From the NCBI GenBank assembly GCA_964396785.1, contig CAYNFU010000001.1:943-64942 (forward strand): 64,000 nt of DNA, in the 5' to 3' direction. This DNA comes from an uncultured Gammaproteobacteria bacterium (GTDB taxonomy: Bacteria > Patescibacteriota > Microgenomatia > UBA8517). Position 1 is the first letter of the stretch. Every line of letters starts with the position of its first letter. Positions 305-43,354 of this stretch are shown here, piece after piece. The notes below the pieces were generated by a model. It did no database searches. It saw only the letters and a list, made by a program, of their open reading frames with translations, and was not told the origin of the DNA. Both the position numbers and the translations under genes were made by a program.

Positions 305-1394
305 TAATATTATTGATAAGCTTTAACAATCTCTTTTTAAAGACATCCTTTGAAAATCGCTCGGCGGATTTAACTATTTTACCTCTATTAAACGACATTT
401 TTTCAAATTTCTTTATGGCTTCGGTCAGACTTACCACCGACTGTTTTTCAAAAAAGACTCCATTTACGCCTGGCAAAATAGTATCCTGCGCACCCCCTAC
501 TTTATATGCAACCACCGGGGTACCGGCCGCATGGGCCTCGACAACCACTTTTCCAAAGTCTTCCTCCTGCGGGAAAATCAATGCCCGTGCCTTACTATAG
601 TAGTGAGAAAGCTCTCTATCTGTCAATTCTCCTATAAACTTGACGTTGCCTTTTGCCATCTTTTTTAGCCTACTTTCCTCGCTCCCCTTTCCAATGATAG
701 TAAGTGGTAGACCAAGCTTATTAAAAGCTCGAACCGCCAGATCCACCCTCTTGTAAGGAGTAAGGCGGCCAACCAAAAGATAAAAATCTGACTCATTTCT
801 TTTCCCTTTGAATTTCTCAATATCTACAGGGGGGTATATAACTTCTGACTCGCGACCATAGTACTTTTCGATCCTTTTTTTGACGACGCTTGATATGGCT
901 ATCATCAAATCGGGCCTAGCGCTTGCAATCTTGTCCCAATTCCTAAGATAGCTAACCAGCGGCCTTGAAATGCCCCTAAAGAAGGGGAACGTTTTAAATT
1001 TACTCGGGGGGAACCTGAAATAAAAATCGTGGGCACTCCAAAGGTAGCGCGTGGGCGTAAGGCAATAACAAATATGAACCGTTCCTGGTTTTGTTATTAT
1101 TCCCTTGGCAGCCTCAGAAGTTACTGAAATAACCAAGTCAAAGGCAGAAAAATCGAAACTTTCAAATGCAATAGGAGTAAAAGCTCCTAAAAATTCATGA
1201 TTGGTTTTTGTTAAGGGAATTTTTTGCAAAAAGGAGGGAATAACCGAAGGAAAAACTTTCGCCCAAGGAGCGTCTTTGGGGGAATAAACCGATGTATAAA
1301 GTGGAGCATCGGGGAAAAGTTCATGCAGGGTGAGTAAGTCGCGCTCGGCCCCACCCCATTTGTTGACTCTATCGTATACGAGCGCAACTTTCAT
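297..1394 (-). CDS. Glycosyltransferase, GT4 / group 1 family (GT-B fold)
   Basis: 365 aa. The N-terminus has the GGAER motif. The C-terminal EDFGKVVVEAHAAGTPVV stretch is the EX7E-type nucleotide-sugar binding signature of Glycos_transf_1. Confidence 0.8.
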   Translation of the reverse strand: MKVALVYDRVNKWGGAERDLLTLHELFPDAPLYTSVYSPKDAPWAKVFPSVIPSFLQKIPLTKTNHEFLGAFTPIAFESFDFSAFDLVISVTSEAAKGIITKPGTVHICYCLTPTRYLWSAHDFYFRFPPSKFKTFPFFRGISRPLVSYLRNWDKIASARPDLMIAISSVVKKRIEKYYGRESEVIYPPVDIEKFKGKRNESDFYLLVGRLTPYKRVDLAVRAFNKLGLPLTIIGKGSEESRLKKMAKGNVKFIGELTDRELSHYYSKARALIFPQEEDFGKVVVEAHAAGTPVVAYKVGGAQDTILPGVNGVFFEKQSVVSLTEAIKKFEKMSFNRGKIVKSAERFSKDVFKKRLLKLINNING

Positions 1395-2499
1395 AGATTT
1401 TAAGTGTCTCTTGCGCCATTTTATTCCAAGAGTATCTTTTTACAAAATCGCGTGCTTTAGCAATCCTTTCCTCCCGGGCTTCAGCTCCTATTTCTAAAGC
1501 CAGCTCCATTGTTCTGGCAATTGATGAGAAATCAAAGGGATTAAAATAAATCGCGTGCTCTTTGTAAACCTCCTTAAGAACCAAAATTTCGGATGCCAGT
1601 ACTAAAGTTCCCACCTCCATCGCGTCAAGACCCGGTATCCCAAATCCTTCGGATAAAGTAGGAAAGACAAATGCGGCTGAGTGCCTGTAAAGTGTTCCCA
1701 CCTCCTCATCTGGCAAAAAGCCTAGAACTTTGACAAAAGCGCCAGCTCCCATTTCGGAAATTAACTTCTCAAGTTTTTTGACAAAGAAATTCCTAGCAGA
1801 AACTATTACCAAGTGTGCTTTTATTCTGCGCTCTGTATTAAGAGAGATAATCGCTTCAATTAATCTTTTCAAATTCTTATGGGGATAGGCGTTTCCTGTG
1901 TATATAAAGTAGGGTGTTTCAATACCATACTTTTTCAAAAGCGGGGTAACAGCGCCCCCTCCAGATAAATCACTTACTCCTTCAGGCGTGACTGAAACTT
2001 TATCTGGGTCAAGGCTGTAATAGTCTACCAGTTCTTTTTTGACCGCATGGCTGGGAACAATAATTTTTACGGGCTTTTTAACCGCCCTATCAAATACGGC
2101 TCTATAGCCCAGTCGTTTAATAAGGTACACGATGGGAGCAAGTGTGGTTGCTTCAAACCCTTTTTGCTTATGCATAAGTAAATCGTGAATTGTTACAACA
2201 TAATCTCCTCGATAGAGAATGGGTACGTTGAAGTGGGGAAAATGAACCAAATCGGGCTTCTCATTTTTTAATATCTTGGGAAGAGAAATTTGTTCGCTAA
2301 ATGAATATTGGCGAAAGTCTCCCTTAATTTTCTTGAAATTCGCGGGTAAAGATAAACTTTTAAAATAGTTATTTCTTAAAATGAGAGTGTAATCGTTTTT
2401 TCTGTCAATTTTTGCAAGATTTTGAGTTAGCTCCATAACATACCTACCTATTCCGGTATGTTCAATTCCATACATTCTGGCGTCGATTACGATTTTCAT
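1369..2499 (-). CDS. Glycosyltransferase, GT4 / group 1 family
   Basis: 376 aa. N-terminal MKIVIDARMYGIEHTGIGRY matches the GT4 N-domain. C-terminal FPTLSEGFGIPGLDAMEVGTLVLAS is the EX7E region. Confidence 0.8.
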   Translation of the reverse strand: MKIVIDARMYGIEHTGIGRYVMELTQNLAKIDRKNDYTLILRNNYFKSLSLPANFKKIKGDFRQYSFSEQISLPKILKNEKPDLVHFPHFNVPILYRGDYVVTIHDLLMHKQKGFEATTLAPIVYLIKRLGYRAVFDRAVKKPVKIIVPSHAVKKELVDYYSLDPDKVSVTPEGVSDLSGGGAVTPLLKKYGIETPYFIYTGNAYPHKNLKRLIEAIISLNTERRIKAHLVIVSARNFFVKKLEKLISEMGAGAFVKVLGFLPDEEVGTLYRHSAAFVFPTLSEGFGIPGLDAMEVGTLVLASEILVLKEVYKEHAIYFNPFDFSSIARTMELALEIGAEAREERIAKARDFVKRYSWNKMAQETLKIYESCARIR

Positions 2500-3695
2500 T
2501 TGGAGGAAATTACACTTGCGTAAATAGGGTCGTGAAGTTTAACAACCTCTTTCCAATCAAAGTATCTGTGAACGTGGTTTTGACCTTTTTGTCCTATACG
2601 ATTTGCCAAATCTGGGTTTTTTAGTAGTTTGATAGCTTCCCTGGCAAGGGCTTCATCACTATCTGCAATGAGCGCTTGTTCCCCCTGAGTGATATTAAGA
2701 CCAGCGACTCCAATTGACGTCGAGACAACAGGAAGCCCGGCGGCCATGGCTTCTAATATTTTTAAGCGGGTTCCCCCCGCTCCTTTTATTGGAGCAACCA
2801 TTATGCTCGCACTTCCGTAAGCATCTCTTGCATCAGGAATATTTTCGGTTATTTCAATGCTTTCATCACTTTCTGAAAGTCTCTTAATCCATTCTGGAAT
2901 TTCTCTGCCTACAATCCAAACCTTAGCATTTGGGACCTCCTTTTTAACCTTAGGCCATATTTTTTTTATCAATATTTCTGAAGCCTCTTGATTTTGAAGC
3001 CACTCAAAGTTGCTTACACCATATAATACTTTAGGGGGCAATTTCCTTTCCATCTTTTTTGCCGCATAAAACTCGGTATCAACCCCGTTAGGAATAATAT
3101 CGACTTTTACCCCTGGAATTAGCTTAATCATTTCACTCCTGTCCTCGGCCGAAACTGCCACTAATTTGCTTGCTTTAGTCCAGTAATGTTTTTCCCAATA
3201 CTTAACCTTTAAAACGTCATACATATAAAAAGGCCTCAAGATTCTAGGTACCTTTGTCTCTACGTGGTGTTTATAAACATCGTGCCAAATAGTTTGCTCG
3301 ACGAGTATTGTGGGAACGTCGGTGCGGGCTAAATGCGGCATAACATAGAAAGTCTCGGCGTGGATCAAATCATATTTCTCATTGGCGAGTTCCAGCGAAA
3401 CCGCCCGCCTTTCCTTTAAAGACAAATTTCTAATAACCATAAGCGGGAATGGCCCGAAAAGAGAAAGGAGCACATTTCTTACGGTCCAAGGCTTTTTTGG
3501 CCTATCAAAAACCATTACTTTTTTGCAGTATTTCCTAAGCTCCGGAATGAATTTCTCCTCAGATGTATCTTTTGCGAGGGAAAAAAGGGTAATATCGTGC
3601 TTCTTTGAAAGGTATTTGATTATATTGTACCAGCGTGTTTGTCCACCGCTGGTCTCAGGTTTTGGCAAATAGGGAACTAACATCAATATCTTCAT
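2496..3695 (-). CDS. Glycosyltransferase, GT4 / group 1 family
   Basis: 399 aa. Contains PETSGGQTRW near the N-terminus and APIKGAGGTRLKILEAMAAGLPVVST at the C-terminus. There is a 4-bp overlap with the upstream gene. Confidence 0.8.
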   Translation of the reverse strand: MKILMLVPYLPKPETSGGQTRWYNIIKYLSKKHDITLFSLAKDTSEEKFIPELRKYCKKVMVFDRPKKPWTVRNVLLSLFGPFPLMVIRNLSLKERRAVSLELANEKYDLIHAETFYVMPHLARTDVPTILVEQTIWHDVYKHHVETKVPRILRPFYMYDVLKVKYWEKHYWTKASKLVAVSAEDRSEMIKLIPGVKVDIIPNGVDTEFYAAKKMERKLPPKVLYGVSNFEWLQNQEASEILIKKIWPKVKKEVPNAKVWIVGREIPEWIKRLSESDESIEITENIPDARDAYGSASIMVAPIKGAGGTRLKILEAMAAGLPVVSTSIGVAGLNITQGEQALIADSDEALAREAIKLLKNPDLANRIGQKGQNHVHRYFDWKEVVKLHDPIYASVISSK

Positions 3696-5197
3696 TTTAT
3701 GGGTTTATGTAAATCTGCTATTAAATAAGTATTTGTTTTCTCAACTACTTCAAACCTTGCAATAACGTCTAGAGTATCTGGGTCATTTAGGCTAACAGTA
3801 ACGTAATAATCCGCCCCTTTTTGAATTATTTCATCCACCGATGAATCAATTACCGGCCATCCCCTTCTTTTTGTCTGGTAAAGAAATGCAGTATCCCCAT
3901 TGTAGGGTGCAATTACTATCGCATCCTTGGGAGTCAATCTATCAACGGCTGCCCCTGCCTCCATAATTTCCGGGTGGTTAACTTTATAAAACTCTCTAAC
4001 TTCGGAGGCTCCTGTTGTAAACATAATGAGTATCGAGAATATTGCAACAGATCTGGTAGCTACGAGCGGAAAGTCTCGGGAATTCCACAAATAAATTAGC
4101 CCCTCTGCCAAGGTTAAAGAAATTGCCGGAATAGCAATCGCCTGATAGTAATCGTGCCTTACGTTGGCTGTGGCAAAGACGACAACATAAATGAGCATCC
4201 CTAGTAAAAATGCATGTGTAAATAGGTCTTTCTTGGGTTTAAGAAGTCCAAAGACAAATATTATAATTCCCCAGAATCCCAAAATAAGTTTTGTTAGTCT
4301 CTCCCCAAAAATCCAGCGAAAAAAAGCGGGTTTTAAGCGGATTCCGTCACCATTGAACATCCAAGACCATCCGGGGATGCCTGCTGGAAATTTACTAATC
4401 CAGGCCCGCCAGACAAAGAAAGGAACCAAAATTATATCTACAAAAATAAGGAGTTTAATTAAGAGTTTGGGATTTTGGAAAATTTTCTTAAAAGAATATT
4501 TCTTTGATATTAAATAAATTAAAGGAACTGTATAAAAAATAATAAAGGGCTTAATTAAAAGTCCAAGAGCGATGGAAACCCCTGATAGATATAAAAAGTG
4601 TGCTTTATCTTTGTCGATAAAAAGAATAAAAAGCCAAATTCCCAACAGGCCAAAAAATATTGCCGTAGGTTCGGGCAGTATTACTCTGGTGAAATAAATG
4701 TTAAAAGGCAAAAAGAGGAAAAAAAATGAAGCTAAAACCCCACCCCACTTATTCATAAATCTTGCTCCCAGAAAGTAGAGAATAAACCCTGAACCTAAAG
4801 TAAAAATAATCGAAACTAGCCTCCCCCATACTTCAAAGGACACAACGCCAATATTTTTGGCTAAAACTGCGTGTATTGCGTTATAGAGAGGGAACTCAAC
4901 ATATCGATAGCCTTCTGGGTTTAAAATTCGAGACTGGGTTGAGGATAAATCGTAGTAACGTGGATAAAGTATATTAACACCGTTTTCCACGTAAAGCCTG
5001 GCAACGGCCGCTGTGTCAGCTTGCCTAAAAGAATGCCAATCTGCAATCGGATTATCTATTTTATATAACCTGACTATAAAACCACCAACAAGTATTAATG
5101 CTAACAAATAGTACTCAATACGCTTAACTGAAATAACTCGCGCAACTAATTTATTCAATATATTTCTCATTTCGTACCAGTCCCACCAAAACACCAA
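3692..5197 (-). CDS. Polytopic membrane protein, putative GT-C-fold (ArnT/PMT-like) glycosyltransferase. The start codon is uncertain because the ORF-track start overlaps the upstream gene.
   Basis: 501 aa. The first approx. 400 aa contain more than 10 predicted TM segments, and the first extracytoplasmic loop is WHSFRQADTAAVARLY. The approx. 120 aa C-terminal domain is soluble. This architecture resembles the GT39/GT83 families. Confidence 0.5.
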   Translation of the reverse strand: MVFWWDWYEMRNILNKLVARVISVKRIEYYLLALILVGGFIVRLYKIDNPIADWHSFRQADTAAVARLYVENGVNILYPRYYDLSSTQSRILNPEGYRYVEFPLYNAIHAVLAKNIGVVSFEVWGRLVSIIFTLGSGFILYFLGARFMNKWGGVLASFFFLFLPFNIYFTRVILPEPTAIFFGLLGIWLFILFIDKDKAHFLYLSGVSIALGLLIKPFIIFYTVPLIYLISKKYSFKKIFQNPKLLIKLLIFVDIILVPFFVWRAWISKFPAGIPGWSWMFNGDGIRLKPAFFRWIFGERLTKLILGFWGIIIFVFGLLKPKKDLFTHAFLLGMLIYVVVFATANVRHDYYQAIAIPAISLTLAEGLIYLWNSRDFPLVATRSVAIFSILIMFTTGASEVREFYKVNHPEIMEAGAAVDRLTPKDAIVIAPYNGDTAFLYQTKRRGWPVIDSSVDEIIQKGADYYVTVSLNDPDTLDVIARFEVVEKTNTYLIADLHKPIK

Positions 5198-6506
5198 TTA
5201 ATAACCAGAAGATTATAGCGAATTTTGACGCTTCAAAAACGTCAATAAAAACTGCATTAATTAATACACCAATGCTCCCTCCCAAAAGACCTGCAACAAT
5301 TGGCCTTTGAATTTCTGGTAGCTTTTCCAAGTTAGACTTCACATTTGCTAAAAACAACGATCCAATCCGAAGGAAAATTAAACAAAATGCTGCAAATCCC
5401 AAAATTCCTGTCTCTCCCAATGCCCTTAAATAATCGTTATCTGTGGCAAGTGTAATTGAAGAATAACCAGTACCAAGTAGTGGATTTTTTGCCAATGACC
5501 TTACCGCCCTCGGCCATTCTACATTTATCCTGATTGAAGAAGATCTATCTTCTATGACGGGTGGAGGTGCTGGTGTAGGAGTCACAAAATCTGTCCTTCT
5601 TTGTGGCACTTCCTCTTGTGCGTATACTGTCCATGACGCATCCCCCGTTCTTTTTTTAACCTCGTCAAAAATTCTTAAATATCTGGCCCTTAAGTCTGGG
5701 GAGAATGAGAAAAATATCAAACTAATGATAGTTACAACGAGAACCTCCTTATACTTTCTAAGGATTAGTAGTGCAACACTAACTCCCACCAAATATGAAA
5801 CGATAGAAATTCTTGATACTGAGGCGAGTAGTAACCAAAGGCCAGAAAAGATTGCCCCCGCAATTAATATTTTCCATAATTTCTGTTTGAGGGTATAAAA
5901 GAGAGCTATAAAAATTGGTAAAACGAAAACCAAAAAAGTGGCTAGATCATAGTGCCCTGCGAACGTGGAATTTATGTGACTTCCCGGTAGCCAGCGAAGG
6001 GCAATTCCTTTTGCATACTCTACGTTTTGTGTGACTATTACTGGCCAATAAAGGAAACGCTGCCCCAGTGCATAAACGAAGACAATAAATAATGTAAGTA
6101 AAAGAACCTTGATATAAAAACTCAAATTCTCTCTATTTCGTATTGCGAGAACTCCCAAGAAAAACCCTGAAAAATATTCAATTCTCCTTAAGAAGTGTAG
6201 AAGTCCAATCTCTGGCTCTACCGACTTTGTTATTAAAACTCCCGACAGCAAAGATAGAAGCCCAACTAACGAATAGATTAAAATAGATTTTTCGATTTTT
6301 AAAGAAAATATCCGAAAAAGTTTTGGAAGTAAATATATCCCGCAAATTCCAAAAACCGTCGCCATCAAAAAATCCTCCAATCTTACAGAAACTTGTATTC
6401 CGGGAATCCTAATAAAAGGAAACTTGGGATACAAAATTATTACCATAATAACTGCGGCGGTTAAGTATTTGAAAATGTTATCCGGTGACTTTAAAAGAGT
6501 TCGCAT
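5151..6506 (-). CDS. O-antigen ligase / polymerase family membrane protein (Wzy_C domain)
   Basis: 451 aa with about 10 TM helices. A large loop contains LGTGYSSITLATDNDYLRALGETGILGF, which matches the Wzy_C H/N-x-Y-L-x-x-L-x-E-x-G-x-x-G signature. A Pro-rich linker (PTPAPPPVIEDRSSS) is inserted upstream of the loop. Confidence 0.65.
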   Translation of the reverse strand: MRTLLKSPDNIFKYLTAAVIMVIILYPKFPFIRIPGIQVSVRLEDFLMATVFGICGIYLLPKLFRIFSLKIEKSILIYSLVGLLSLLSGVLITKSVEPEIGLLHFLRRIEYFSGFFLGVLAIRNRENLSFYIKVLLLTLFIVFVYALGQRFLYWPVIVTQNVEYAKGIALRWLPGSHINSTFAGHYDLATFLVFVLPIFIALFYTLKQKLWKILIAGAIFSGLWLLLASVSRISIVSYLVGVSVALLILRKYKEVLVVTIISLIFFSFSPDLRARYLRIFDEVKKRTGDASWTVYAQEEVPQRRTDFVTPTPAPPPVIEDRSSSIRINVEWPRAVRSLAKNPLLGTGYSSITLATDNDYLRALGETGILGFAAFCLIFLRIGSLFLANVKSNLEKLPEIQRPIVAGLLGGSIGVLINAVFIDVFEASKFAIIFWLLIGVLVGLVRNEKYIE

Positions 6507-6511
6507 AATTT

Positions 6512-7057
6512 TTATTTAAGCTCCTTTTTTATATCGATTGCCGCTTGGTAAAGATTCTTTGAAATAAGGAGAGTTAAGCCCAAAGTTAAAAACCCAATTA
6601 ATAGCCTTATTCCAAGGTTGCTCGGTACATATCTTACAATCACTTTTTGTCTCCAATCTTTTTCATCTATTTTTATTGCATCTTGAGCAAGTTTTGGTTC
6701 AAAACCGTTCACAAATATAGACTCTCTAAAAGGGTGTACTATCTCTTCGAGAAAAGTGCTTCTGGCTTGGTCGCGTATGAGAGTCTGCGCTTCTTCTGGC
6801 GGATAATTGAGCCGATAGGTGGGAAGGGGAACTTCAAAGAAGTTTGATTTATTAAACTCTTCCTGATAGTGGGCTAAAACCTCATTTCGCCCATAATCCG
6901 TATAATATCCTCTCCTTAACGGGGTTTCCACGTCCGCCGGTTCATTTGAAACGTACGCATCGTCTAGTTGTTCGGGAAATTCTGGTGAGGGCAAGTATAA
7001 ATAGAGAAGGAAACCTAGGCTGAGTAATAAAAATGCGATCTTTAATGCTACTTTCAT
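6512..7057 (-). CDS. Hypothetical bitopic membrane protein (TM at both ends, acidic extracytoplasmic middle domain)
   Basis: 181 aa ORF with an N-terminal hydrophobic helix (IAFLLLSLGFLLYLYL) and a C-terminal helix (LLIGFLTLGLTLLI). No family was recognised. It is co-directional and tightly packed in the operon. Confidence 0.5.
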   Translation of the reverse strand: MKVALKIAFLLLSLGFLLYLYLPSPEFPEQLDDAYVSNEPADVETPLRRGYYTDYGRNEVLAHYQEEFNKSNFFEVPLPTYRLNYPPEEAQTLIRDQARSTFLEEIVHPFRESIFVNGFEPKLAQDAIKIDEKDWRQKVIVRYVPSNLGIRLLIGFLTLGLTLLISKNLYQAAIDIKKELK

Positions 7058-8803: not shown

Positions 8804-9888
8804 TTTAATTTGCTCCCTGCCCTTTGGTAAACTTTAATAGTACTTTCGGAAACCCGCGTCCAAGAAAATTCTTTAACTTTCTCTTTCCCTTTTTTTACGA
8901 GATCTTCCCTATCCTTTATGGCACTTTTCACGCCCTCCGAGATAGAATCAACATCCTCCGGGTCAACCAAAACCGCTGCACCATGACCCAACTCCTGCAT
9001 TGTTCCTACTTTTGAAGTGACAACTGGAGTTTCACAAGCAAAAGCCTCGAGGATTGGAAATCCGAAGCCTTCATATAGTGACGGATACAAAAGTGCTTTA
9101 GATCCTGAATACAAGGCAGGAAGGTCGGAAGAGGCAACATGTCCTAGAATTTTCACACCGCGCGTAGGCTCAATTTTCATGAATGGATGGCCCACAATAA
9201 TAAGCTTCATGTCCATTCCCGGCCTTACTTTTTCGAATGCTCTTACTATCCTTTGGGTATTCTTTCTGGGATTGACCCCGATTGACAAAAGATATGAGCC
9301 GCTTATTTGATACTTTCTTTTTACCTTTTCAATTTCGACTTGTGTGGTACGTTTAAAGGCCTGATCCGGAGCTTCTGGGATAACCACTATTCTATCCGTC
9401 TCTACATTAAGCCTCATAATATCATTTTTTGTAGTTTCTGAAGGAACTATAATCACATCTACTTCATTAATAACCCATTTGAGGCGAGCTAGATGTGTTT
9501 TAACTATCTTTGGGTGTGTAAGCTTGGGAAAAAGTAAAGGAAACAAATCGTGTACCGTGGTTACTTTGAAGGCCTTGGAGGGTGGCTGGGTCCAATCGGA
9601 AGAATGAAAAACATCGACCTCCCCGACCAATCTTTCGACCGGCAGGATATGGAGCCTGTTCCAGACAATTGCGGCAAGAGTGGGTGGAAATGGAAAGACC
9701 TTGTCTGTAAAATTACCTTTTAGTGAATTAAAGAAAGCCTTCAGCGTCCCCATTTGCCTAAGGGATCCACCAAATAAGATATAGTCATTTTTGTCGTCAA
9801 ACCGTAATAAGTTCTCACAAAGAAGCTTCGTATAAACAGATACACCGGTGCCGTAGACAACTTGGGAAACGTCAATTGCAATCTTCAT
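8800..9888 (-). CDS. Glycosyltransferase, GT4 / group 1 family
   Basis: 362 aa. C-terminal YPSLYEGFGFPILEAFACETPVVTS is an EX7E motif. There are 4-bp overlaps on both sides. Confidence 0.8.
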   Translation of the reverse strand: MKIAIDVSQVVYGTGVSVYTKLLCENLLRFDDKNDYILFGGSLRQMGTLKAFFNSLKGNFTDKVFPFPPTLAAIVWNRLHILPVERLVGEVDVFHSSDWTQPPSKAFKVTTVHDLFPLLFPKLTHPKIVKTHLARLKWVINEVDVIIVPSETTKNDIMRLNVETDRIVVIPEAPDQAFKRTTQVEIEKVKRKYQISGSYLLSIGVNPRKNTQRIVRAFEKVRPGMDMKLIIVGHPFMKIEPTRGVKILGHVASSDLPALYSGSKALLYPSLYEGFGFPILEAFACETPVVTSKVGTMQELGHGAAVLVDPEDVDSISEGVKSAIKDREDLVKKGKEKVKEFSWTRVSESTIKVYQRAGSKLK

Positions 9889-11294
9889 GGCCGTTTCAGG
9901 TATCTTATAATGCCAACTCCGGGAAAATCAAAGGAAGAAGCTTCAATAAAGCCTTCCTCACCTAAACTTGTCGCTACAATCCGCCCAGGGTCGTGGAGCT
10001 CCCACAAATACTCAAAATAATAAACCCCTTTTGAGTTTAGAGTTTTATCGGTAACTTTTTTCCTTGTGGGAATGGGATTTGCGGCTATTGAATCTGTTAA
10101 GCCTTCGGCATTCATGCTTTGGTTACTATACCATTGGTAGGGTGCAAATGGCTCTGTAAAATTAAAAACAACCATCTCATCACTTGCTACCCTTGATTCT
10201 ACGAAGTGAACTGCCTCTCTCCACTGCTCTCTTTTCTGATAAGGGTCGGTTATATAAATGAGCCAGGAGAAAATATTTCCAAGAATAATTATTCCCAAAA
10301 GAAGTAATTTATTCTTACCTTTATGTTTTTCAATCCCCCAAGCGGCTAAAAGAAAAAAGGCTGGCAAAACATACAAAAATCGGAAATAAATAAATGCCGG
10401 AAAAAATAAAGAGGTGAAAAAACCAAGAAAAATCGGGACAATAAGGTAAAGCCGTACGGGAATGACTTCCCTTCTTTTCCGCCATGCCGCAATAAAAGCG
10501 AGAGCGTAGGGGATAGAGAAAATACCGATAAGAGAATAATACAAAGTCTTATCGGTGATTGATATCCTGCCAAAGACAAACTTTGCCCAAACTAACCCCA
10601 GCTGTTTGGGGGTCGCCCCACCCGCCACTTTTGCCCATGCCGGAAGAGTCTCTAAAAGCCATCTTCCACCTTGGGACTGGATTAAAAAGGTTGGAATCCA
10701 CAAAATTCCTAAAATCAGAAGGGGTAGGAAAGATATAGCCATCTTTTTCCACCAAATTTTTCCTTTCTTTGAAATAAATCCTATTAGCCAAAAAACTGGG
10801 AGAAGAAATACGGGCATATAATCGGTAAATACCAAAGCAACTATTGTTAGGGAAAAGGCCTTCCAGTTCTCTTTAAGGAAGAGGTAGAACGCAAGCGCGG
10901 CTAAAAAGGCCGCCATAGAATACATTCTGGCTTCTTGAGAGTAATAAATATGAAACGGAGATGTGGCTATAAGAATTGCCGCAAGAGCCCCCAAGCGCTT
11001 GCTAAATATGTTTCCTATCTTATATACCATGTAGATGGTTCCAATACCAAAAATGACTGACAAGCTCCTAAGGGCAGCTTCCGAATATCCAAATAGACCA
11101 CTCCAGAGCTTAAGGGTTAAGTAATATAAAGGGGGGTGATTATCGTGCGTAGGAAACTCTGACAAAATCTGCCAAAATGTCTGATTTTTTACTACAAGTG
11201 CCCCTATGCTCTCGTCCAGCCAAAGAGACTGGTTAATTACAACTAGCCTTAAGGCTAGTCCCACAATAAGTATCAAAAGAATGTACTTTTTCAT
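9885..11294 (-). CDS. GT-C-fold membrane glycosyltransferase, GT39 (PMT/ArnT)-like
   Basis: 469 aa with about 11 TM segments. The first loop has WLDESIGA (DE motif) followed by HPPLYY, as in PMT_2 family proteins. The C-terminal soluble domain (EQWREAVHFVESRV...) is homologous to the C-termini of the tandem paralogs at 46.5-64 kb. Confidence 0.7.
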   Translation of the reverse strand: MKKYILLILIVGLALRLVVINQSLWLDESIGALVVKNQTFWQILSEFPTHDNHPPLYYLTLKLWSGLFGYSEAALRSLSVIFGIGTIYMVYKIGNIFSKRLGALAAILIATSPFHIYYSQEARMYSMAAFLAALAFYLFLKENWKAFSLTIVALVFTDYMPVFLLPVFWLIGFISKKGKIWWKKMAISFLPLLILGILWIPTFLIQSQGGRWLLETLPAWAKVAGGATPKQLGLVWAKFVFGRISITDKTLYYSLIGIFSIPYALAFIAAWRKRREVIPVRLYLIVPIFLGFFTSLFFPAFIYFRFLYVLPAFFLLAAWGIEKHKGKNKLLLLGIIILGNIFSWLIYITDPYQKREQWREAVHFVESRVASDEMVVFNFTEPFAPYQWYSNQSMNAEGLTDSIAANPIPTRKKVTDKTLNSKGVYYFEYLWELHDPGRIVATSLGEEGFIEASSFDFPGVGIIRYLKRP

Positions 11295-13120
11295 AGTGCG
11301 GGTACGGCAACCCTAGGATCATGGGTTAGCACCCAGCTTAAGTGTAAAACAAAAAGGAGAGCCAGGAAACTCAATATGGTCAATTTGGACTTTAAGGAAG
11401 ATTTTCTCACAAGCCTATAAATAATTAGCCCCAGGACAATGTGGAGAGCAGGATAGACAATAAAGGTTAAATAGGGGCTTCCCCATACCTTATCAAAATT
11501 AAATCTAAGAAGTGATGAGGCTACATCATTTGGGAAATCCTGGTTAACAAACCTTACTTTGAAAGGTTCTTGGAATTTTAATCCAACGAGCCTTAGAGCA
11601 TCCCAAGCAAAACCAAGATACCTACTTCCGGAAATCTCGGTGTATCTAAGACGGACAACGAGTGCATCGAGCCCAAATGTCAAAGGAAGAATCAGGGACA
11701 TAAGACCTGGTCTTAAAAAATAGAATCCGGCAAAAACTCCAAAAACCAAAAGTGACTGAACTATCTCAAGATTTTGAAATACTGGTCCAAAGTAGACTAT
11801 CCACCCGAATTGCTCGGTCGACCTTAACAAAAGGCCAAAGCCGGCTATTAAAAAAAGTGTTGCTAAAATAGAGTTTAATACTTTCTTTTTAAGGATAAAT
11901 AAAACCGACAACGCCCCCCAGACCAACAGGTAATAGGGGAAATATCTGCCACCCGAGCTAGGCGGGTTCGTTCCAAGTCTTCTATCCAAAAAGTTAGAGG
12001 TATCGGCGACAAAATAATCGGAAAAGGCGTCCTGGGAGTTATAGAAAATTTCATCTCCTAATTTTTGATTCATCCTTTTTTGAGGAGTTAAAATCCACTC
12101 AAAATCTCCACCCTTGAGCCTAACAACATCTGGATTTTGAGAATAATAAGCCATATAACTTTGGGCAAAATCGCTCATCGTTACAAACATCAGGCCCTGA
12201 ATCTTACTAAGGGTAAGAAGTTGGTTCCCATATTCCTCAATAAATGTAGCCCCCTCAATTCCGGTCTCAAGGCCGACTGTGGCCTGTCCTATCTCATTTC
12301 GACAGTCAAGATAATTCCTTACAAGTGTGTCAAAATAATCGGTATTTTTTCCTAAACTCGTGTAATCATTTGCTTGCATTGAATAATTGGAATATGCCGG
12401 CCCTTCCCCATAGGCCAAAGTTAAGTCTCTCTGTGCCCACTGAATAACAACTAAATCCATTTGACTCTCTTTAGAACCCGCCGGAGTTAAAACATTAGCC
12501 TTGCTCGGATAATAGGGAATCCCCCACCACTGACCCCAAACTCCATAGTTGTCGGTAGTTTTTTGGTCGGAAACTATCATGGCGGATACTACTCCATACT
12601 TTTTACTCAAATAGTTCAGGGAGTAGGAATCAATCCACCAGGCTCCCACGGACTTTGGATAATAGCCGAAAGTGTCTTTAAACCGTCTAAAGGTAGTATC
12701 AAGAAGCTTTCTTCGCTCGCTTTCTTGATATCCGGACAAAAACACTGCCCTGGGACTCGCCCAGGGGGTAAATGCAGGATAAATAACCCTCGAATCCCTC
12801 GCAAGATCCGTACTTACCTCAAGAAGTAGCCCAAATTCTTGGTTTGGGCTAAATCCGCGGACCTCAGAAATAACTTCGGAGTCAATGAGCGCGTCGTACT
12901 GCAAAAGCCATGTGGCGGGATACGAATACTTACTTGACAGACTATATTGGTTGAGAAGCGGGTTCACAGACTTGTCGCTCCAAAGCTCCCTTCCGCGTAC
13001 GGGATTTACCAAAGTCAGGTAGCGTCTTTGACAAGAAATATTTTGCTCCTGAGCAAATAAATTTCCGGGAAATACCAGAAAAAGTAAGGCAGTCAAAAGA
13101 AGCGTCCAAAAAAACCTCAT
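11291..13120 (-). CDS. Hypothetical secreted, membrane-anchored protein. It has an N-terminal signal peptide, an approx. 380 aa Trp/Tyr-rich extracytoplasmic domain and a C-terminal multi-TM anchor.
   Basis: 609 aa. MRFFWTLLLTALLFLVFPGNLFAQ is signal-peptide-like. The middle domain contains WWIDSYSLNYL...YGVWGQWWGIPYYPSKANV and many aromatic residues; it is possibly carbohydrate-binding or carbohydrate-modifying. About 5 TM helices lie in the last approx. 200 aa. No family was assigned from memory. Confidence 0.55.
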   Translation of the reverse strand: MRFFWTLLLTALLFLVFPGNLFAQEQNISCQRRYLTLVNPVRGRELWSDKSVNPLLNQYSLSSKYSYPATWLLQYDALIDSEVISEVRGFSPNQEFGLLLEVSTDLARDSRVIYPAFTPWASPRAVFLSGYQESERRKLLDTTFRRFKDTFGYYPKSVGAWWIDSYSLNYLSKKYGVVSAMIVSDQKTTDNYGVWGQWWGIPYYPSKANVLTPAGSKESQMDLVVIQWAQRDLTLAYGEGPAYSNYSMQANDYTSLGKNTDYFDTLVRNYLDCRNEIGQATVGLETGIEGATFIEEYGNQLLTLSKIQGLMFVTMSDFAQSYMAYYSQNPDVVRLKGGDFEWILTPQKRMNQKLGDEIFYNSQDAFSDYFVADTSNFLDRRLGTNPPSSGGRYFPYYLLVWGALSVLFILKKKVLNSILATLFLIAGFGLLLRSTEQFGWIVYFGPVFQNLEIVQSLLVFGVFAGFYFLRPGLMSLILPLTFGLDALVVRLRYTEISGSRYLGFAWDALRLVGLKFQEPFKVRFVNQDFPNDVASSLLRFNFDKVWGSPYLTFIVYPALHIVLGLIIYRLVRKSSLKSKLTILSFLALLFVLHLSWVLTHDPRVAVPAL

Positions 13121-13938
13121 TTTGTCCTCTTGCCCGTAAGAATCATCTCTAGTATCCCAATCAAAATACCAAAGTCATATACCAGCTTGAATACCAAAAA
13201 TTGAGGTAACATGTTTATAAATGCCTTAAATGTGCCGACCATGAAAGATACTGCTAAAGACGCACGGACTATGCCAATCGTCTGTCCAAAGGCCCCAAGC
13301 TTATATCCTCTTTTGCCCACCCACCTGGCGTGATTAAATACTTCTTTTAAGGAAGAAGGATTTTTGTGATAAAAGATGACTCCTGGGGTTGAGACGGCCA
13401 TGTATCCTAATTTGTCATAGAGGCTGTAGTCGTCGGTGTAGCCACCGGGGGTAAAACCCTCAACCTTATCAAATTCTTTTTTTAGAATTGCCCTAAATAC
13501 TTTTTGTTTATCGGGGTAATTTCTGGGATGGCGTTTCCTTTCTTCCCAATTTTGATTAATATTCCAGCACCTTGCCCAAACATTCTCCCAGTTACTTACG
13601 TATTCGTATTTTGAAAAAGTTCCCTTTGCGGATCCCGAAAGAATTGGTTTAACTAGGTTTTTTAGAAAGTTTTTGTCAAAAGTCATGTCAGCGTCGACAA
13701 AAACCAAAATTTCGCCGCTTGCACGCTTTACCCCCAAATTCCTCGCCGCTCCAGCCCCAAGGTGGTTCTGGTGAAGCGTAGTAACTCGTGAGCTTATCTT
13801 TTCAGGGGTTTCGTCGGTAGAGCCGTCATCGACAACAATAATCTCGAAATCGTGATAAGTTTGTTTAGCGAGAGACGCTATACATTCTCCAATTGCGTTA
13901 GACTCATTGTAAGTCGGAATAATAACCGAGATTTTCAT
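13117..13938 (-). CDS. Glycosyltransferase family 2 (GT-A fold)
   Basis: 273 aa. MKISVIIPTYNESNAIGECIASLAKQTY...EIIVVDDGSTDET...GAGAARNLGVKRASGEILVFVDADM is a canonical GT2 N-domain with a DxD motif. Confidence 0.8.
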   Translation of the reverse strand: MKISVIIPTYNESNAIGECIASLAKQTYHDFEIIVVDDGSTDETPEKISSRVTTLHQNHLGAGAARNLGVKRASGEILVFVDADMTFDKNFLKNLVKPILSGSAKGTFSKYEYVSNWENVWARCWNINQNWEERKRHPRNYPDKQKVFRAILKKEFDKVEGFTPGGYTDDYSLYDKLGYMAVSTPGVIFYHKNPSSLKEVFNHARWVGKRGYKLGAFGQTIGIVRASLAVSFMVGTFKAFINMLPQFLVFKLVYDFGILIGILEMILTGKRTK

Positions 13939-16380: not shown

Positions 16381-18267
16381 ATGTGTGGAATAGCCGGAAA
16401 AATATATTTGGACTCAAGATCCGTTAGCCACGAGCATCTTAGGAAAATGTCCGAAAAAATCGTACATCGTGGACCGGACGACGATGGTGTATATATAAGC
16501 CGCGACAAAAAGGTAGGGTTAATTAACCGTCGTCTTGCAATCATTGACTTATCAAAAGCCGGACATCAGCCGATGCTATACAAGGGACGCTACGCAATTA
16601 CCTTTAACGGAGAGGTCTATAATTTCCAGGAAGAAAGACGCAAGTTAGAAAAAGAAGGATACCAATTTAAATCAAACACCGACACTGAAGTGATTTTAGC
16701 CCTCTATGACAAATACGGAGTGTCCTTTTTAAAAAGACTTAGGGGGATGTTTGCTTTTGCAATCTATGATGACAGGGAAAAAACAATTTTTCTTGCCAGA
16801 GATAGAATCGGCAAAAAACCTCTTAAGTATTTCATTAACGGAGGCACTTTTATTTTCGCCTCAGAGCTAAAAGCAATTCTTACCCAATCCGAAGTCAAAA
16901 GGACGATTGACTACAATGCAATTCAGTCTTACTTAGTCTACGGCTATACCCCTTCACCCCTTACTGGTTTTGAAGGTATAAAGAAGCTTCAACCCGGCCA
17001 CTACATAATAATGAACCTGAGGCGAAAAACATTTGAAATCAAAAGATACTGGGAACCGGTTTTCAGAAATAAGCTTCATTTAACCGAGAATGAATGGTGC
17101 GACAGAATTCTTAATACTTTAGAGCAGTCCACCCGACTCCGGATGATCTCGGATGTACCAATTGGGGCTTTTGTGTCGGGTGGGGTTGATTCAAGTGGCG
17201 TCATTTATGCAATGAGTAAATTCTCGGATAAACCCATAAATACTTTCACAATTACCTTTGACGATAAAAAGTGGAGTGAAGCCAAATATGCTCAAAATCT
17301 AGTCAAAAAATTCGGGACGAATCACCACGAGCTTCTGGCTAAACCCGAGAATGTCGAAATCCTTCCTGAACTCGCATACCAATATGAGGAGCCATTTGCG
17401 GATGCAAGCAATGTTGTAACTTATATGGTGAGTCGTCTTGCAAGAAAGTATGTCACTGTCATATTAAACGGAGACGGAGGAGATGAGAATTTTGCGGGTT
17501 ACCCAAACAGATACTTTAGACTTGGCCGTGACGTGAACTTTTACAATTGGATAAACACAATAAGGCCCTTGGCAGTTGCCGGGTTAAAGGCATTAGCTAG
17601 AGTTTCAAAAAGTACTCTTGTTACCAGGCCAACCAATTTTTTTGAAAAATCAAAGCTTCCTCTATATCAGCGCTTCGCCTCCTACAACCAAATATTTTCT
17701 TTTGACGAAATCGTAAGTATGTCAACGGGTGCCTTGGTCGATGTAAACAACACACAAAATCCATACACAATTGTAGAAAACTGTTTCAAAATGTTTAAAG
17801 GCAAAGATCTAAAGGACGCGGGGCTCAAATTTGACCTTTTATACTGGCTACCGGATGACCTTTTGGCCAAAGTTGACATCGCTTCCATGGCCAGCTCACT
17901 TGAAGCCCGCTCTCCTCTACTGGACCATCATATGATAGAGCTTGCAGGTAAAATTCCATTTAGATTAAAGGTAAAAAATGGAGAGAGTAAATATATCCTC
18001 AAAAAGGCTCTTGAGACAGTCATCCCTAGAGAAAATTTATACAGGCCCAAGATGGGCTTCGGAGTTCCCCTCCATCTTTGGTTCTCTGGAAAATTAAATA
18101 GCTATACTAAAGGAGTTCTACTTTCCAAAAAGGCAAAGGTTAAAGGGTTAATTAGACAAGATGCAATCAAAAATATGCTTGAAGGTCATTCGGAAACCAA
18201 CGATTTCGGCCCACGCCTCTGGGCACTACTTTCACTGGAGCTCTGGTTAAAGAGCTTCTTCAACTAA
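16381..18267 (+). CDS. asnB: Asparagine synthetase (glutamine-hydrolysing) family amidotransferase, AsnB-like
   Basis: 628 aa. It starts MCGIAG (Cys2 is the class-II GATase nucleophile). The central VSGGVDSS is the PP-loop ATP pyrophosphatase motif. It is one of only two plus-strand genes in the window. Confidence 0.9.
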   Translation: MCGIAGKIYLDSRSVSHEHLRKMSEKIVHRGPDDDGVYISRDKKVGLINRRLAIIDLSKAGHQPMLYKGRYAITFNGEVYNFQEERRKLEKEGYQFKSNTDTEVILALYDKYGVSFLKRLRGMFAFAIYDDREKTIFLARDRIGKKPLKYFINGGTFIFASELKAILTQSEVKRTIDYNAIQSYLVYGYTPSPLTGFEGIKKLQPGHYIIMNLRRKTFEIKRYWEPVFRNKLHLTENEWCDRILNTLEQSTRLRMISDVPIGAFVSGGVDSSGVIYAMSKFSDKPINTFTITFDDKKWSEAKYAQNLVKKFGTNHHELLAKPENVEILPELAYQYEEPFADASNVVTYMVSRLARKYVTVILNGDGGDENFAGYPNRYFRLGRDVNFYNWINTIRPLAVAGLKALARVSKSTLVTRPTNFFEKSKLPLYQRFASYNQIFSFDEIVSMSTGALVDVNNTQNPYTIVENCFKMFKGKDLKDAGLKFDLLYWLPDDLLAKVDIASMASSLEARSPLLDHHMIELAGKIPFRLKVKNGESKYILKKALETVIPRENLYRPKMGFGVPLHLWFSGKLNSYTKGVLLSKKAKVKGLIRQDAIKNMLEGHSETNDFGPRLWALLSLELWLKSFFN

Positions 18268-38181: not shown

Positions 38182-39666
38182 TTAATAACCTAAAAATTGT
38201 CTTGATTTAAGTCTGATGCCTCCTTCTTGAGAACCTTCTAAACTTGAATAACTTGCGCTAATTTCTCCTTTCCAAAACACTTCAAAATAATTCTGGTCGG
38301 ATAAAACTACTTTAAGCAATGCCGTAGGGCTCCAGGGCAAATCTCTATCTTCTTGAGTATCGTAAAAAGCAACACTCTTAACACCCGATACTAATTCCTT
38401 GTTTTTCAATAAGTAGTCATGCACATTTTTGGCAGTATAACCTCCTCTGGTAATCCAATGTGTTTTCTTTGTGAGACCAATTGTCATAAAAGAAAGTATA
38501 AGCCAGATAATCATAAATAGGGATGCAACAAAATACTGTCTTTTAGCGGTAAGGAGATAGGAAATAATGATTACTATTCCTATTAGGGGTAAGGTCAGAT
38601 AAAAGGTGAACTTGTGAAGGGGAAGAAAAAGAACAGGAAGCAAAGTAACAAAAAACCAGGCTATACAAAAGATAAACAAATTTAATAAATTGCGCTTTGT
38701 AAACAAATTCTTGATGTTCCTAAAAACTTTGTAGAGAAGAATTATTACTGCTCCGGAGAATAAAATAAAAATCGGAATTATCTCCTTTGACCAGAATTTA
38801 AAGAGATTGGGATTAAACTTTAGACCAGGTCCTACAAAATCCACGAGCATCTCAGGCAAATTGAATGCCCAGAGGCCGTACCAACCAAAGGTATTAAAAA
38901 GTCTTCTGATTGAGAAGTCCCAAAGGTAACTGTCTCCCGTGGCAAAGCCGTAATAGCTTACGCGCATATAGAGATAGACTGCAAGAATTAAGAGAAAGGG
39001 TATGAGTGAGGTCAGGAGTTCACCAAGCTTCAATTTATTTTTCTTTTGTTTTTTCATTAACCAATAAATAGGGATAAATATCATGGGCAAAACAACGGCG
39101 GTTTCCTTTGAAAGTAAGCTCAAAATAAATGTCATAATACTAAAAACTAAATGCTTTTTATCAGACTTCTCTAGAAATTCAATAAAAAATAATACCGAAA
39201 GAATGAAAAACAACGTCATCCCTAACTCCTGAAACGTGGCTAAATAATAAAGATGGCCGAAGTGGGAAGCACTTGTTGCATACAAAAACGCAGCAATTAA
39301 TGGGATTTTATCCGTTGTCCGAGGTTCGAAGTTAGACAATAACATTTTGGTCAATCTGTAGGTAAGATAGGTAACTGCAAAAAATACAATAAAAGAAATT
39401 ATATGAAGGCCGAGTGGATAAAAGTTAAAAAGCTTCCAAGCCAGAAAATAAAAAACTTGAGTGGTTAAAGGCCGATACATTCCCAAACCGTCTGGTCCCT
39501 GGGTCAGATTAAAGAAGTTCAAAAATTCTTTGAGAGAGCCTGCTTGGGAAATTTTGAGTAAGAAAAAATCGTCATGGGTGTAAAAAGTAAACAGTGAAGG
39601 AAAATAAAGAACAAAGGAAATGAAAAGGATAATAAATAGGTATTTAGTCGACCGAAAAAATTTCAT
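38182..39666 (-). CDS. Polytopic membrane protein, unknown family (possible GT-C-like)
   Basis: 494 aa with about 12 TM helices. The first loop is FYTHDDFFLLKISQAGSLKEF. The short C-terminal soluble domain is GEISASYSSLEGSQEGGIRLKSRQ. Confidence 0.5.
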   Translation of the reverse strand: MKFFRSTKYLFIILFISFVLYFPSLFTFYTHDDFFLLKISQAGSLKEFLNFFNLTQGPDGLGMYRPLTTQVFYFLAWKLFNFYPLGLHIISFIVFFAVTYLTYRLTKMLLSNFEPRTTDKIPLIAAFLYATSASHFGHLYYLATFQELGMTLFFILSVLFFIEFLEKSDKKHLVFSIMTFILSLLSKETAVVLPMIFIPIYWLMKKQKKNKLKLGELLTSLIPFLLILAVYLYMRVSYYGFATGDSYLWDFSIRRLFNTFGWYGLWAFNLPEMLVDFVGPGLKFNPNLFKFWSKEIIPIFILFSGAVIILLYKVFRNIKNLFTKRNLLNLFIFCIAWFFVTLLPVLFLPLHKFTFYLTLPLIGIVIIISYLLTAKRQYFVASLFMIIWLILSFMTIGLTKKTHWITRGGYTAKNVHDYLLKNKELVSGVKSVAFYDTQEDRDLPWSPTALLKVVLSDQNYFEVFWKGEISASYSSLEGSQEGGIRLKSRQFLGY

Positions 39667-40451
39667 CGAATCCCTAAAATGTTTAGAGTAATTATGCGTC
39701 CTAAATTATGTAAATAATGGAGCATAAGAATAACTTGATTACTAGTATGTTTCTCTACAATCTTCTCGTCCTCAAATAATATCTTCTTAAATTCGGTCGT
39801 CGATATTGAACCTCTTGAAAGACGAAAACCAGATAAAACGTTATCCAGTATTTTTGGCATCTTAGCTTTCCCCAATCTTAACCACATTTCATACTCCGTG
39901 ACTCCAGTAGCTGTTCCTGTAAAAGGTCCATAATTTTTATAAGCACTTTTACTTAAAAAGACAGATGGTTGAAAAAGGTAGTTGACACAAAGTAGCCAGG
40001 AATAATTATTTAGCTTCAAAAGATAATTTTTGTAGGAATCTACCCAAGAAGCAATTTCGTTCCCATTCTCGTCTATCGTTTTTCCCCTTCCTGCAAGCCA
40101 CAAGGTATTTGGATGTTTTGCAAAATACTCTCCAACTTCTCTTAAGACGCCATCCTGATAAACGTCGTCGGCATTAAGATAGGTTAATATTTCTCCACTT
40201 ACCTCCTTAAGTCCTTTGTTTATTGCATCCTTCTGCCCTTCTCCTCTCTTTTCTAGCCAGCTGATAAGTTTAGGGTATTTTTGAGCGTATTTTTTTATAA
40301 CTTCCTGGGTTCCGTCATTCGAGCCTCCGTCCCGGATTATTACTTCCAGATTTGGATATTTCTGGTCAATAATTGACTGAAAGGTAGAACCAATAAAGTC
40401 TACTTTATTAAATGAAGGAATTACTATAGAAATTTTGGGTAAAGCTGCCAT
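39663..40451 (-). CDS. Glycosyltransferase family 2
   Basis: 262 aa. ISIVIPSFNKVDFIGSTFQSIIDQKYPNLEVIIRDGGSNDGT ... YLNADDVY (DxD). Confidence 0.8.
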   Translation of the reverse strand: MAALPKISIVIPSFNKVDFIGSTFQSIIDQKYPNLEVIIRDGGSNDGTQEVIKKYAQKYPKLISWLEKRGEGQKDAINKGLKEVSGEILTYLNADDVYQDGVLREVGEYFAKHPNTLWLAGRGKTIDENGNEIASWVDSYKNYLLKLNNYSWLLCVNYLFQPSVFLSKSAYKNYGPFTGTATGVTEYEMWLRLGKAKMPKILDNVLSGFRLSRGSISTTEFKKILFEDEKIVEKHTSNQVILMLHYLHNLGRIITLNILGIR

Positions 40452-40454
40452 TCA

Positions 40455-40796
40455 TTACTCGTTCTTCTTTTTTAATCCCTTAAGGGCTTCTTTTCTAATA
40501 AATCTTTCGAATTTCTTTTCTATTCTTCTAGTCCTTACATAGGCTAATGCTACCATGGTAATCACCAAAACTAGCCCTCCCATTATCATTAGATCAAGAA
40601 GTCTTGAGATAAAAAACGTTTGAGCAATGCCCCGCAGTGTATCAGGAAAAAGAACCGTATAAAGGGCACTTCCCCATGCTCCCATCCAAATGGTTATCTC
40701 AATTTTATTTAGTTCTTTTCTCCTGAAGTTCACATAAGCTAAGTAGACCATGACCATGGCAAAAATTATCGCAACAAATTGTAGGCCTAATATCAT
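40455..40796 (-). CDS. Small membrane protein (2-3 TM) sandwiched between GT2 genes. DUF2304/GtrA-like candidate.
   Basis: 113 aa. MILGLQFVAIIFAMVMVYLAYVNF ... LLDLMIMGGLVLVITMVALAYV. It ends in a basic tail (RRIEKKFERFIRKEALKGLKKKNE). Its position directly downstream of a GT2 gene is typical of small accessory membrane proteins that partner polyprenyl-P-sugar synthases. Confidence 0.45.
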   Translation of the reverse strand: MILGLQFVAIIFAMVMVYLAYVNFRRKELNKIEITIWMGAWGSALYTVLFPDTLRGIAQTFFISRLLDLMIMGGLVLVITMVALAYVRTRRIEKKFERFIRKEALKGLKKKNE

Positions 40797-42205: not shown

Positions 42206-43354
42206 TTAGGAAACCCAATAGCCTCGGCTGAAGAGAGCACAAGCGAGAGCAAGAAGGACTCCCGAAATGCAATATACTGCTATTTTTAACCCCCTCGGCT
42301 TTTTATTGAGCCAAATCGCCGAAAGTAAAAAAGCCGGAAAAAGAATAAGAACATAACGAGGAAAAGATGAAAAGCTTCCTGAAAGAGGGGGGATTAAATA
42401 TCCTACAGCAAAAAACAAAGAGTAACTAAGTCTTAATTTAAAAAACGACCATATTCCAAGAATCCCAAATATAATTCCAGAAGCAATCTCTAGATATGTG
42501 GTGAACACTATCGGAAAATAATTGTAATTAAGGTTTGGCAAAACCTTGAAAAAATATCTATAAAAAACTTGGGGTAAAAGAATTATCTCGCTTGAGCGCT
42601 GCTCGCCAAAAATTGAAACGTTGTGAAAAAATTCCAAAGGGTCTCCAACTGTTACATATAAATAGTACATATAAAGGATTAGTCCCATTGGAACAAGTGC
42701 TAATGATATGAGTGGTACTACCCAACTGCCCTTCCTATGCTTAAGAAACTTCCAAACTTCATAGCCAATAGCCGGAATTAAAGCAAGAGCTGTAATTCTT
42801 GTTGCTGTTGCAAAAGCTCCAAGAACTCCTGCAAAAATCCAACTGCCTTTTCTTGCAAAGAAAAAAGACCAAATAATCAGCGCAAATACCAACCCCTCAG
42901 TATAGAAGGCACCGAAATAAAATGACGTCGGAAAAAAGATTAGTAAAAGTATAGTCATTTTTGCAATATTCTCTTTATAATCCAGACGAATTAATTTCCA
43001 CAAGCCAAAAAGACCAATTAAAAACGCTAGGTTCGATACCAATAATCCCGATATAGCTATTGTTATGAATTCGCTACTTACCAAAAATGCAATCAGTCTG
43101 GTGAGAATTGGGAGGAGGGGAAAAAAGAAATAAGTCAGAGGCTGATAGCCTAGATGTGCAATTGCCGCATAGTGTTCTCCATCAAAGTTCAAAAAACTCC
43201 AAAAATAAGGATTTTGTAAATAGTTTGTTAGTCCCCCACCGAGGAAATCTTTTTGGAGAGGAAAAAGGGCAATCCCCAAAAATACAATCAAAAAAAGTGC
43301 TATCCTCCATAAGATAAAGGAGGTAAGAATGAATTTACTTCCCTCAAGTCTCAT
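42206..43354 (-). CDS. Polytopic membrane protein, putative GT-C mannosyltransferase of the PIG-V/GT76-like type
   Basis: 382 aa with about 10 TM helices. The first loop is WSFLNFDGEHYAAIAHLGYQP, which resembles the W-x-x-F-D-x-x-H-[FY]-x-x-I-A-x-x-G-Y motif of Mannosyl_trans2 (PIG-V) proteins. It lies immediately downstream of two DPM1-like GT2 genes. Confidence 0.5.
   Translation of the reverse strand: MRLEGSKFILTSFILWRIALFLIVFLGIALFPLQKDFLGGGLTNYLQNPYFWSFLNFDGEHYAAIAHLGYQPLTYFFFPLLPILTRLIAFLVSSEFITIAISGLLVSNLAFLIGLFGLWKLIRLDYKENIAKMTILLLIFFPTSFYFGAFYTEGLVFALIIWSFFFARKGSWIFAGVLGAFATATRITALALIPAIGYEVWKFLKHRKGSWVVPLISLALVPMGLILYMYYLYVTVGDPLEFFHNVSIFGEQRSSEIILLPQVFYRYFFKVLPNLNYNYFPIVFTTYLEIASGIIFGILGIWSFFKLRLSYSLFFAVGYLIPPLSGSFSSFPRYVLILFPAFLLSAIWLNKKPRGLKIAVYCISGVLLALACALFSRGYWVS

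Follow-up and report, generated by a model that had tools for sequence, protein, structure and literature searches.

Members of the candidate phyla radiation (CPR; Patescibacteria) live as ultra-small episymbionts and probably attach to their hosts by means of surface glycans, and to our knowledge almost nothing has been established about the enzymology of their envelopes. A locus on contig CAYNFU010000001.1, analyzed here as one stretch of 64 kb (hereafter the window), raises a specific question of this kind: what does a 609-amino-acid (aa) membrane protein encoded between two glycosyltransferase genes do? We propose, with moderate confidence in the reading as a whole, that it is a membrane-anchored, DUF3863-like enzyme that processes glycans outside the cytoplasm by glycosidase-type chemistry, in concert with GT-C transferases. 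We are more confident than that of the fold, the location, and the partnership, and less confident of the chemistry. The protein would probably trim or remodel a cell-surface sugar chain alongside the neighboring membrane glycosyltransferase, which may make it a new accessory component of extracytoplasmic glycosylation.

The open reading frame (ORF) spans 11291..13120 on the minus strand, exactly as the first-pass annotation had it, and starts with ATG, with an AGAGGA-like ribosome-binding site 5-6 nt 5' of the start codon. A word-indexed search recovered 567 homologues with E<=1e-3, the best of which is 99% identical; the top 120 are all ~590-655 aa long, with 45-99% identity. An exhaustive HMMER scan of 1.84 billion representatives of 50%-identity clusters found 755 relatives at E<=1e-3 and 290 at E<=1e-30. 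These numbers indicate a real gene. Every source homologue is named "hypothetical protein," a search of NCBIfam gave 0 matches, and a search of PDB sequences with the family profile returned only spurious PotB matches (E~5). A string quoted in the annotation as YYLDCRNE actually reads NYLDCRNE. The gene is present once in the window; two ORFs of similar product length (~607-609 aa) were considered as paralogues and rejected, namely, 24967-26790, which encodes an unrelated protein with 14 transmembrane (TM) segments, and 58257-60086, which encodes an AsnB paralogue.

The fold provides the first part of the answer. Using an alignment of 31 family sequences, from which conserved columns were also taken, AlphaFold2 produced a model with pLDDT of 86.4 and pTM of 0.86. 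A Foldseek search with this model matched 3lm3 (E 3e-13), the structure of BDI_3119 from Parabacteroides distasonis, which represents DUF3863 (PF12979) and is annotated as a "putative glycoside hydrolase/deacetylase"; the modeled barrel has the DUF3863 fold seen in this structure. At the sequence level, the protein scores 11.2 bits against PF12979 (E 0.15) vs. a Pfam gathering threshold of 27 bits, and the matches found in 15 of the 31 family members are all sub-threshold (best E 2.9e-5). A profile comparison of BDI_3119 with the family alignment by hhalign gave E 9.7e-5 and a probability of 58% over 181 columns. In that alignment, R42, T70, W71, D80, E101, Q186, and D190 are identical in BDI_3119, while D164 and D185 are replaced by Ser; it extends to residue 226, excluding R231, D252, and E285, and the BDI_3119 sequence was stitched over two frameshifts in a Logan contig, such that the junction residues are approximate. 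The structure match, the weak PF12979 score, and the hhalign result together place the modeled barrel in the superfamily of seven-stranded-barrel glycoside hydrolases and deacetylases, where it forms a distant branch of the DUF3863 group.

No function is known for DUF3863 itself, and a literature search for DUF3863, PF12979, BDI_3119, and 3LM3 found nothing relevant. The branch occurs also in polysaccharide-utilization loci (PULs) of gut Bacteroidetes. In a Parabacteroides-like Logan contig (L062), a DUF3863/DUF3864 gene at 871-5811 is 100% identical to 3lm3 over the tested fragment, and the PUL has the order SusD-like gene, gene for a 560-aa protein without a Pfam family, DUF3863, and GH2, which is a degradative glycan context. 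The 84-aa 3lm3 fragment used as query returned only gene fragments of <=146 aa. Two Logan assemblies, independent of each other, both break the DUF3863 gene of this contig into fragments of 101 and 234 aa, which may reflect a true pseudogene or a systematic error of assembly.

The location of the barrel relative to the membrane follows from the architecture of the protein, which has these parts:

13052..13120, minus strand: signal peptide, residues 1-23, with a hydrophobic core and predicted cleavage between LFA and QEQ (hydropathy)
12131..13051, minus strand: predicted extracytoplasmic beta/alpha barrel, DUF3863-like, residues 24-330
11945..12130, minus strand: beta-strand-rich sub-domain and linker from barrel to membrane, residues 331-392 (DSSP on the model)
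11294..11944, minus strand: C-terminal membrane module, residues 393-609, with six TM helices, a hairpin, and a meander
11537..11650, minus strand: four-strand beta-meander between TM4 and TM5, predicted on the outer face, residues 491-528

The signal-peptide-like N-terminus noted in the first-pass annotation is borne out by the hydrophobic residues 1-23 and by Ala23, at position -1 to the predicted cleavage site, which is at least 90% conserved in the 31-sequence alignment. Of 244 relatives whose barrel is N-terminal, 238 have a hydrophobic leader. In P0121, a natural GT-C fusion, the similarity starts at query residue 22, right behind ~11 predicted TM segments, which implies that the leader is dispensable there. 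Two cysteines, C30 and C273, occur together in 134 barrels and singly in 0, and probably form a disulfide. The perfect co-occurrence of these cysteines, the N-terminal leaders, and the position of the P0121 match are independent lines of support for an outside barrel. Furthermore, the Lys/Arg-rich loops of the membrane module (KKK at 410-412, LRPG at 468-471, and RLVRKSSLKSK at 569-579) all lie on one side, consistent with the large domain, the hairpin at residues 435-443, and the meander being outside. The aromatic richness that had been remarked upon is also real: Trp plus Tyr make up 10.1% of the ectodomain vs. 3.6-6.9% of six cytoplasmic enzymes from the same window.

The sub-domain next to the barrel has strands at 333-359 (DSSP) and conserved W342, R349, Y360, D368, and R380. 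A C-terminal cluster of TM helices had been predicted and is present, with six members instead of about five (396-410, 414-433, 451-467, 473-488, 549-572, and 576-598, from hydropathy and two AlphaFold models). The membrane module has invariant S434, R492, D507, D528, P557, H560, and D601-P602; it is confidently modeled, and the model has no known fold and no structural relative in the PDB. The polytopic tether is not universal, as 41 of ~147 barrel representatives in our census have tails without TM helices. In the proposed arrangement, the signal peptide would be cleaved and the disulfide-braced barrel would sit just outside the membrane on the six-helix anchor, with the meander and hairpin of the anchor on the same outer face.

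The chemistry was approached through conservation among 257 barrels of all architectures, with 34-99% identity to the query. Fifteen residues are 96-100% conserved (R42, E95, E101, Y131, R136, D164, D185, Q186, D190, W228, R231, S247, Q249, D252, and E285), accompanied by aromatics (W71, W161, and W195 at >=94%, W199 at 87%, and also Y114, Y192, and Y253). The conserved positions of the barrel also take in the motif WGQWWG at W195-G200. Read from sequence position against the DSSP strands of the model, the conserved residues are at or just past the C-terminal strand ends, where beta/alpha barrels have their catalytic face; D164 comes after strand 157-160 and E285 after strand 278-282, and both are invariant.

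Family CE4 deacetylases share a distorted beta/alpha barrel fold, which the model of the 609-aa protein also has, and carry an Asp-His-His metal triad plus a catalytic His in the motifs TFDD, H[ST]xxH, and LxH. In the 257 barrels, no column has more than 23% His, and across the 31 sequences, the ectodomain contains no His that is invariant or at least 90% conserved; the family thus lacks both the metal triad and the catalytic His by which CE4 is defined. No Polysacc_deac_1 or other deacetylase Pfam model matched any of the 31 members at E<=10, and an hhalign comparison with Escherichia coli ArnD, aimed at mapping the CE4 residues, gave a probability of 0.3%, i.e., no signal. These results, together with a dense Trp/Tyr lining and multiple carboxylates that are more typical of glycosidases, weigh against a non-canonical CE4-like de-N-acetylase, esterase, or amidohydrolase that lacks the Asp-His-His metal site and strips an acetyl, carbamoyl, or similar group from a surface glycan or lipid-linked sugar, and we consider such an enzyme unlikely.

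A histidine-free chemistry rich in carboxylates and aromatics instead favors a glycosidase- or transglycosylase-like mechanism over Zn-dependent deacetylation. Most likely, the protein would cleave, trim, or transglycosylate a glycosidic (or sugar-phosphate) bond by carboxylate acid/base catalysis, with E101, D164, D185/D190, D252, and E285 as candidates, and would not perform Zn-dependent de-N-acetylation. The aromatics may provide a sugar-binding platform, and the three conserved arginines may hold an anionic group. The substrate would be a lipid-linked or nascent cell-surface glycan made by the same locus. Alternatively, the barrel could be a non-catalytic pseudo-enzyme that binds the acceptor or acts as a scaffold, keeping the glycan or a lipid-linked intermediate in place for the GT-C next to it, as soluble periplasmic domains do in other GT-C enzymes. 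However, conservation of 96-100% at six carboxylates and three arginines, over 34-99% identity and in unrelated architectures, including soluble ones, fits catalysis better than binding alone, and we regard a purely non-catalytic role as quite doubtful.

Evidence for the partnership with GT-C enzymes comes from the genomic context and gene fusions. The immediate neighbors are as follows:

13117..13938, minus strand: upstream GT2 of 273 aa with a hydrophobic C-terminus (Pfam Glycos_transf_2, E 1.4e-34), possibly a polyprenyl-phosphate sugar synthase
9885..11294, minus strand: downstream GT-C glycosyltransferase (Pfam PMT_2, E 7e-9), a probable physical partner

The start of the 609-aa gene shares a 4-nt ATGA overlap with the stop of the GT2 gene, and its stop shares a 4-nt ATGA overlap with the start of the GT-C gene. 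With overlaps at both ends, the three genes are probably translationally coupled. Among family relatives, P0121, P0122, and P0143 have a PMT_2 domain N-terminal to the homologue of the 609-aa protein. The GT-C part of P0121 matches the downstream window GT-C with E 2.6e-90 (next best 5e-17 among 21 polytopic window proteins), and that of P0122 matches the window GT-C at 38182-39666 with E 1.9e-68. P0121 is a single uninterrupted ORF on a 33-kb contig with a similar locus, and its GT-C-first order is the reverse of the window gene order, such that read-through of adjacent genes does not explain it. These fusions are good evidence for a functional, and probably physical, partnership with GT-C enzymes; in the proposed mechanism, the 609-aa protein would work beside PMT_2-type GT-Cs, particularly the one immediately downstream.

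Other fused forms were also observed. P0168 (1639 aa) has an N-terminal Wzx-type flippase (Polysacc_synt_3, E 9.5e-55), the barrel at ~489-815, and ~12 more predicted TM segments. P0154, P0164, P0181, and ~25 other representatives are 830-1170 aa long, with an N-terminal barrel and a shared tail of 6-19 TM segments. The tails of P0154 and P0164 have no Pfam match, and those of the ~1000-1160-aa relatives show no similarity to the window GT-Cs by phmmer; this tail may represent another uncharacterized class of membrane enzyme.

The window is essentially one co-directional glycan locus with a coding density of ~100%; the minus strand carries 53 of its 55 non-overlapping ORFs, and 23 proteins are polytopic (>=6 predicted TM segments). 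It holds many PMT_2/PMT GT-Cs, six GT4s, several GT2s, and genes for Wzy_C, a Wzx flippase, a hexapeptide acyltransferase, a carbamoyltransferase, methyltransferases, and two AsnB paralogues. The GT-C expansion is unusually large for a small-genome CPR organism. A membrane anchor and a large outside domain, in a locus with Wzx and Wzy_C genes, could also fit a chain-length regulator of the PCP/Wzz type or an export component. PCP/Wzz proteins have two TM helices around a largely helical periplasmic domain, an architecture different from a signal peptide, a barrel, and six TM helices, and no Wzz match was found in Pfam or among the top fold matches; we consider this explanation highly improbable. 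Thus, among the roles put forward in the first-pass annotation, the hydrolase- or deacetylase-like processing enzyme is supported at the level of fold, and the chain-length regulator and exporter are unsupported.

Across GTDB species genomes, 57 loci carry the family, which is widespread in Microgenomates. All of the informatively titled loci are from CPR bacteria, namely, Woesebacteria (76% identity), Daviesbacteria, Levybacteria, Shapirobacteria, WWE3, and one Parcubacteria. L013, L014, L016, L019, L021, and ~20 other loci with the family come from third-party bulk assemblies with records titled "uncultured Gammaproteobacteria bacterium," a title that appears to be a placeholder or wrong given the gene content and the 40-50% identity to Daviesbacteria/Shapirobacteria proteins. 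A GT-C or other >=7-TM protein is encoded <=3 genes away in 26 of 35 loci, and the commonest downstream neighbor is a GT4. The order GT2, family member, GT-C was considered as a conserved cassette and rejected, as no locus shows it apart from the window and the Woesebacteria locus L004 (76% identity). Members of the Shapirobacteria clade (~40% identical) are often outside glycan clusters.

Several other features of the window were recorded. Four polytopic proteins without a Pfam match are encoded on the minus strand at 24967-26790, 42206-43354, 54109-54957, and 61686-63002 (14, 11, 7, and 6 predicted TM segments, respectively). The AsnB-type glutamine amidotransferase paralogues at 16381-18267 (plus strand, among the only plus-strand genes of the window) and 58257-60086 (minus strand) match each other with E 1.4e-109 and may amidate a sugar carboxylate. 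The NodU/CmcH-type carbamoyltransferase at 26783-28558 (minus strand) implies a carbamoylated glycan. A ~181-aa protein without a Pfam family (6512-7057, minus strand) is encoded between the hexapeptide acyltransferase and Wzy_C genes. ORFs of 182 aa follow the hexapeptide gene in the distant loci L001 (17328-17857) and L002 (16486-17034), the latter just before Wzy_C, and these ORF sizes and positions suggest a conserved trio. A GT2 and DUF2304 small-membrane-protein pair and an EamA/DMT-type transporter are encoded at 39663-40796 and 48150-49004 (both minus strand); the EamA/DMT-type transporter is a candidate flippase for polyprenyl-phosphate sugars that feed the GT-Cs. An argument that the six-TM module supplies a missing flippase is weakened by these EamA/DMT-type and DUF2304 proteins.

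The DUF3863-like branch is tied to GT-C glycosyltransferases through gene overlap and gene fusion, and its soluble domain is experimentally tractable and could give the DUF3863 branch its first function. Compared with BDI_3119, which is soluble, PUL-encoded, and has a DUF3864 tail, the 609-aa protein has a six-TM module and belongs to a biosynthetic locus of CPR bacteria. Compared with CE4 and CE4-like enzymes (HP0310 3qbu, 3rxz, 1z7a/PuuE-like, SpPgdA, and chitin deacetylases) and ArnD (8t0j), its family lacks a conserved His, a deacetylase Pfam match, and profile similarity to ArnD. ArnD works on the cytoplasmic face of the membrane, whereas the barrel is placed outside. The periplasmic exopolysaccharide modifiers PelA, Agd3, and PgaB show much weaker structural similarity; these deacetylases depend on a metal, may or may not carry separate GH domains, and have no such polytopic anchor.

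The GH57 enzymes share five conserved sequence regions and a (beta/alpha)7 barrel that leads into a four-helix bundle; their nucleophile is a Glu on beta4, and an Asp on beta7 donates the proton (PMC6037648). The model also has a (beta/alpha)7 barrel. However, the residue types are swapped, with Asp after beta4 and Glu after beta7 (equivalence judged from sequence position), and the barrel is followed by two helices and the four beta-strands at 333-359 instead of a four-helix bundle. No Glyco_hydro_57 match at E<=10 was found in the 31 members, and none of the five GH57 sequence regions is detectable. The likeness to GH57 (and the related GH38/GH119) is a resemblance, not membership.

The three-component GT-C system consists of a GT2 polyprenyl-phosphate-sugar synthase, a flippase, and a GT-C (PMC11127046 and PMC8035078). 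The 609-aa protein matches none of these components, being neither a GT2 nor a GT-C and having no GtrA/DMT similarity; compared with that system, it is an extra, fourth gene between the GT2 and the GT-C. A more speculative extension of the glycan-processing reading, to which we give little weight, is that the barrel and six-helix module form an unrecognized fourth component of extracytoplasmic GT-C glycosylation systems. In this picture, the membrane module, whose invariant R492, D507, D528, H560, and D601 would lie close to the outer leaflet, would bind a sugar or glycan linked to polyprenyl phosphate, and the barrel would edit or cleave this lipid-linked substrate at the membrane surface and pass it to a docked GT-C. 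Such a system would be an outside-cell counterpart of the ArnC-ArnD-ArnT logic, with a new membrane fold and a histidine-free chemistry.

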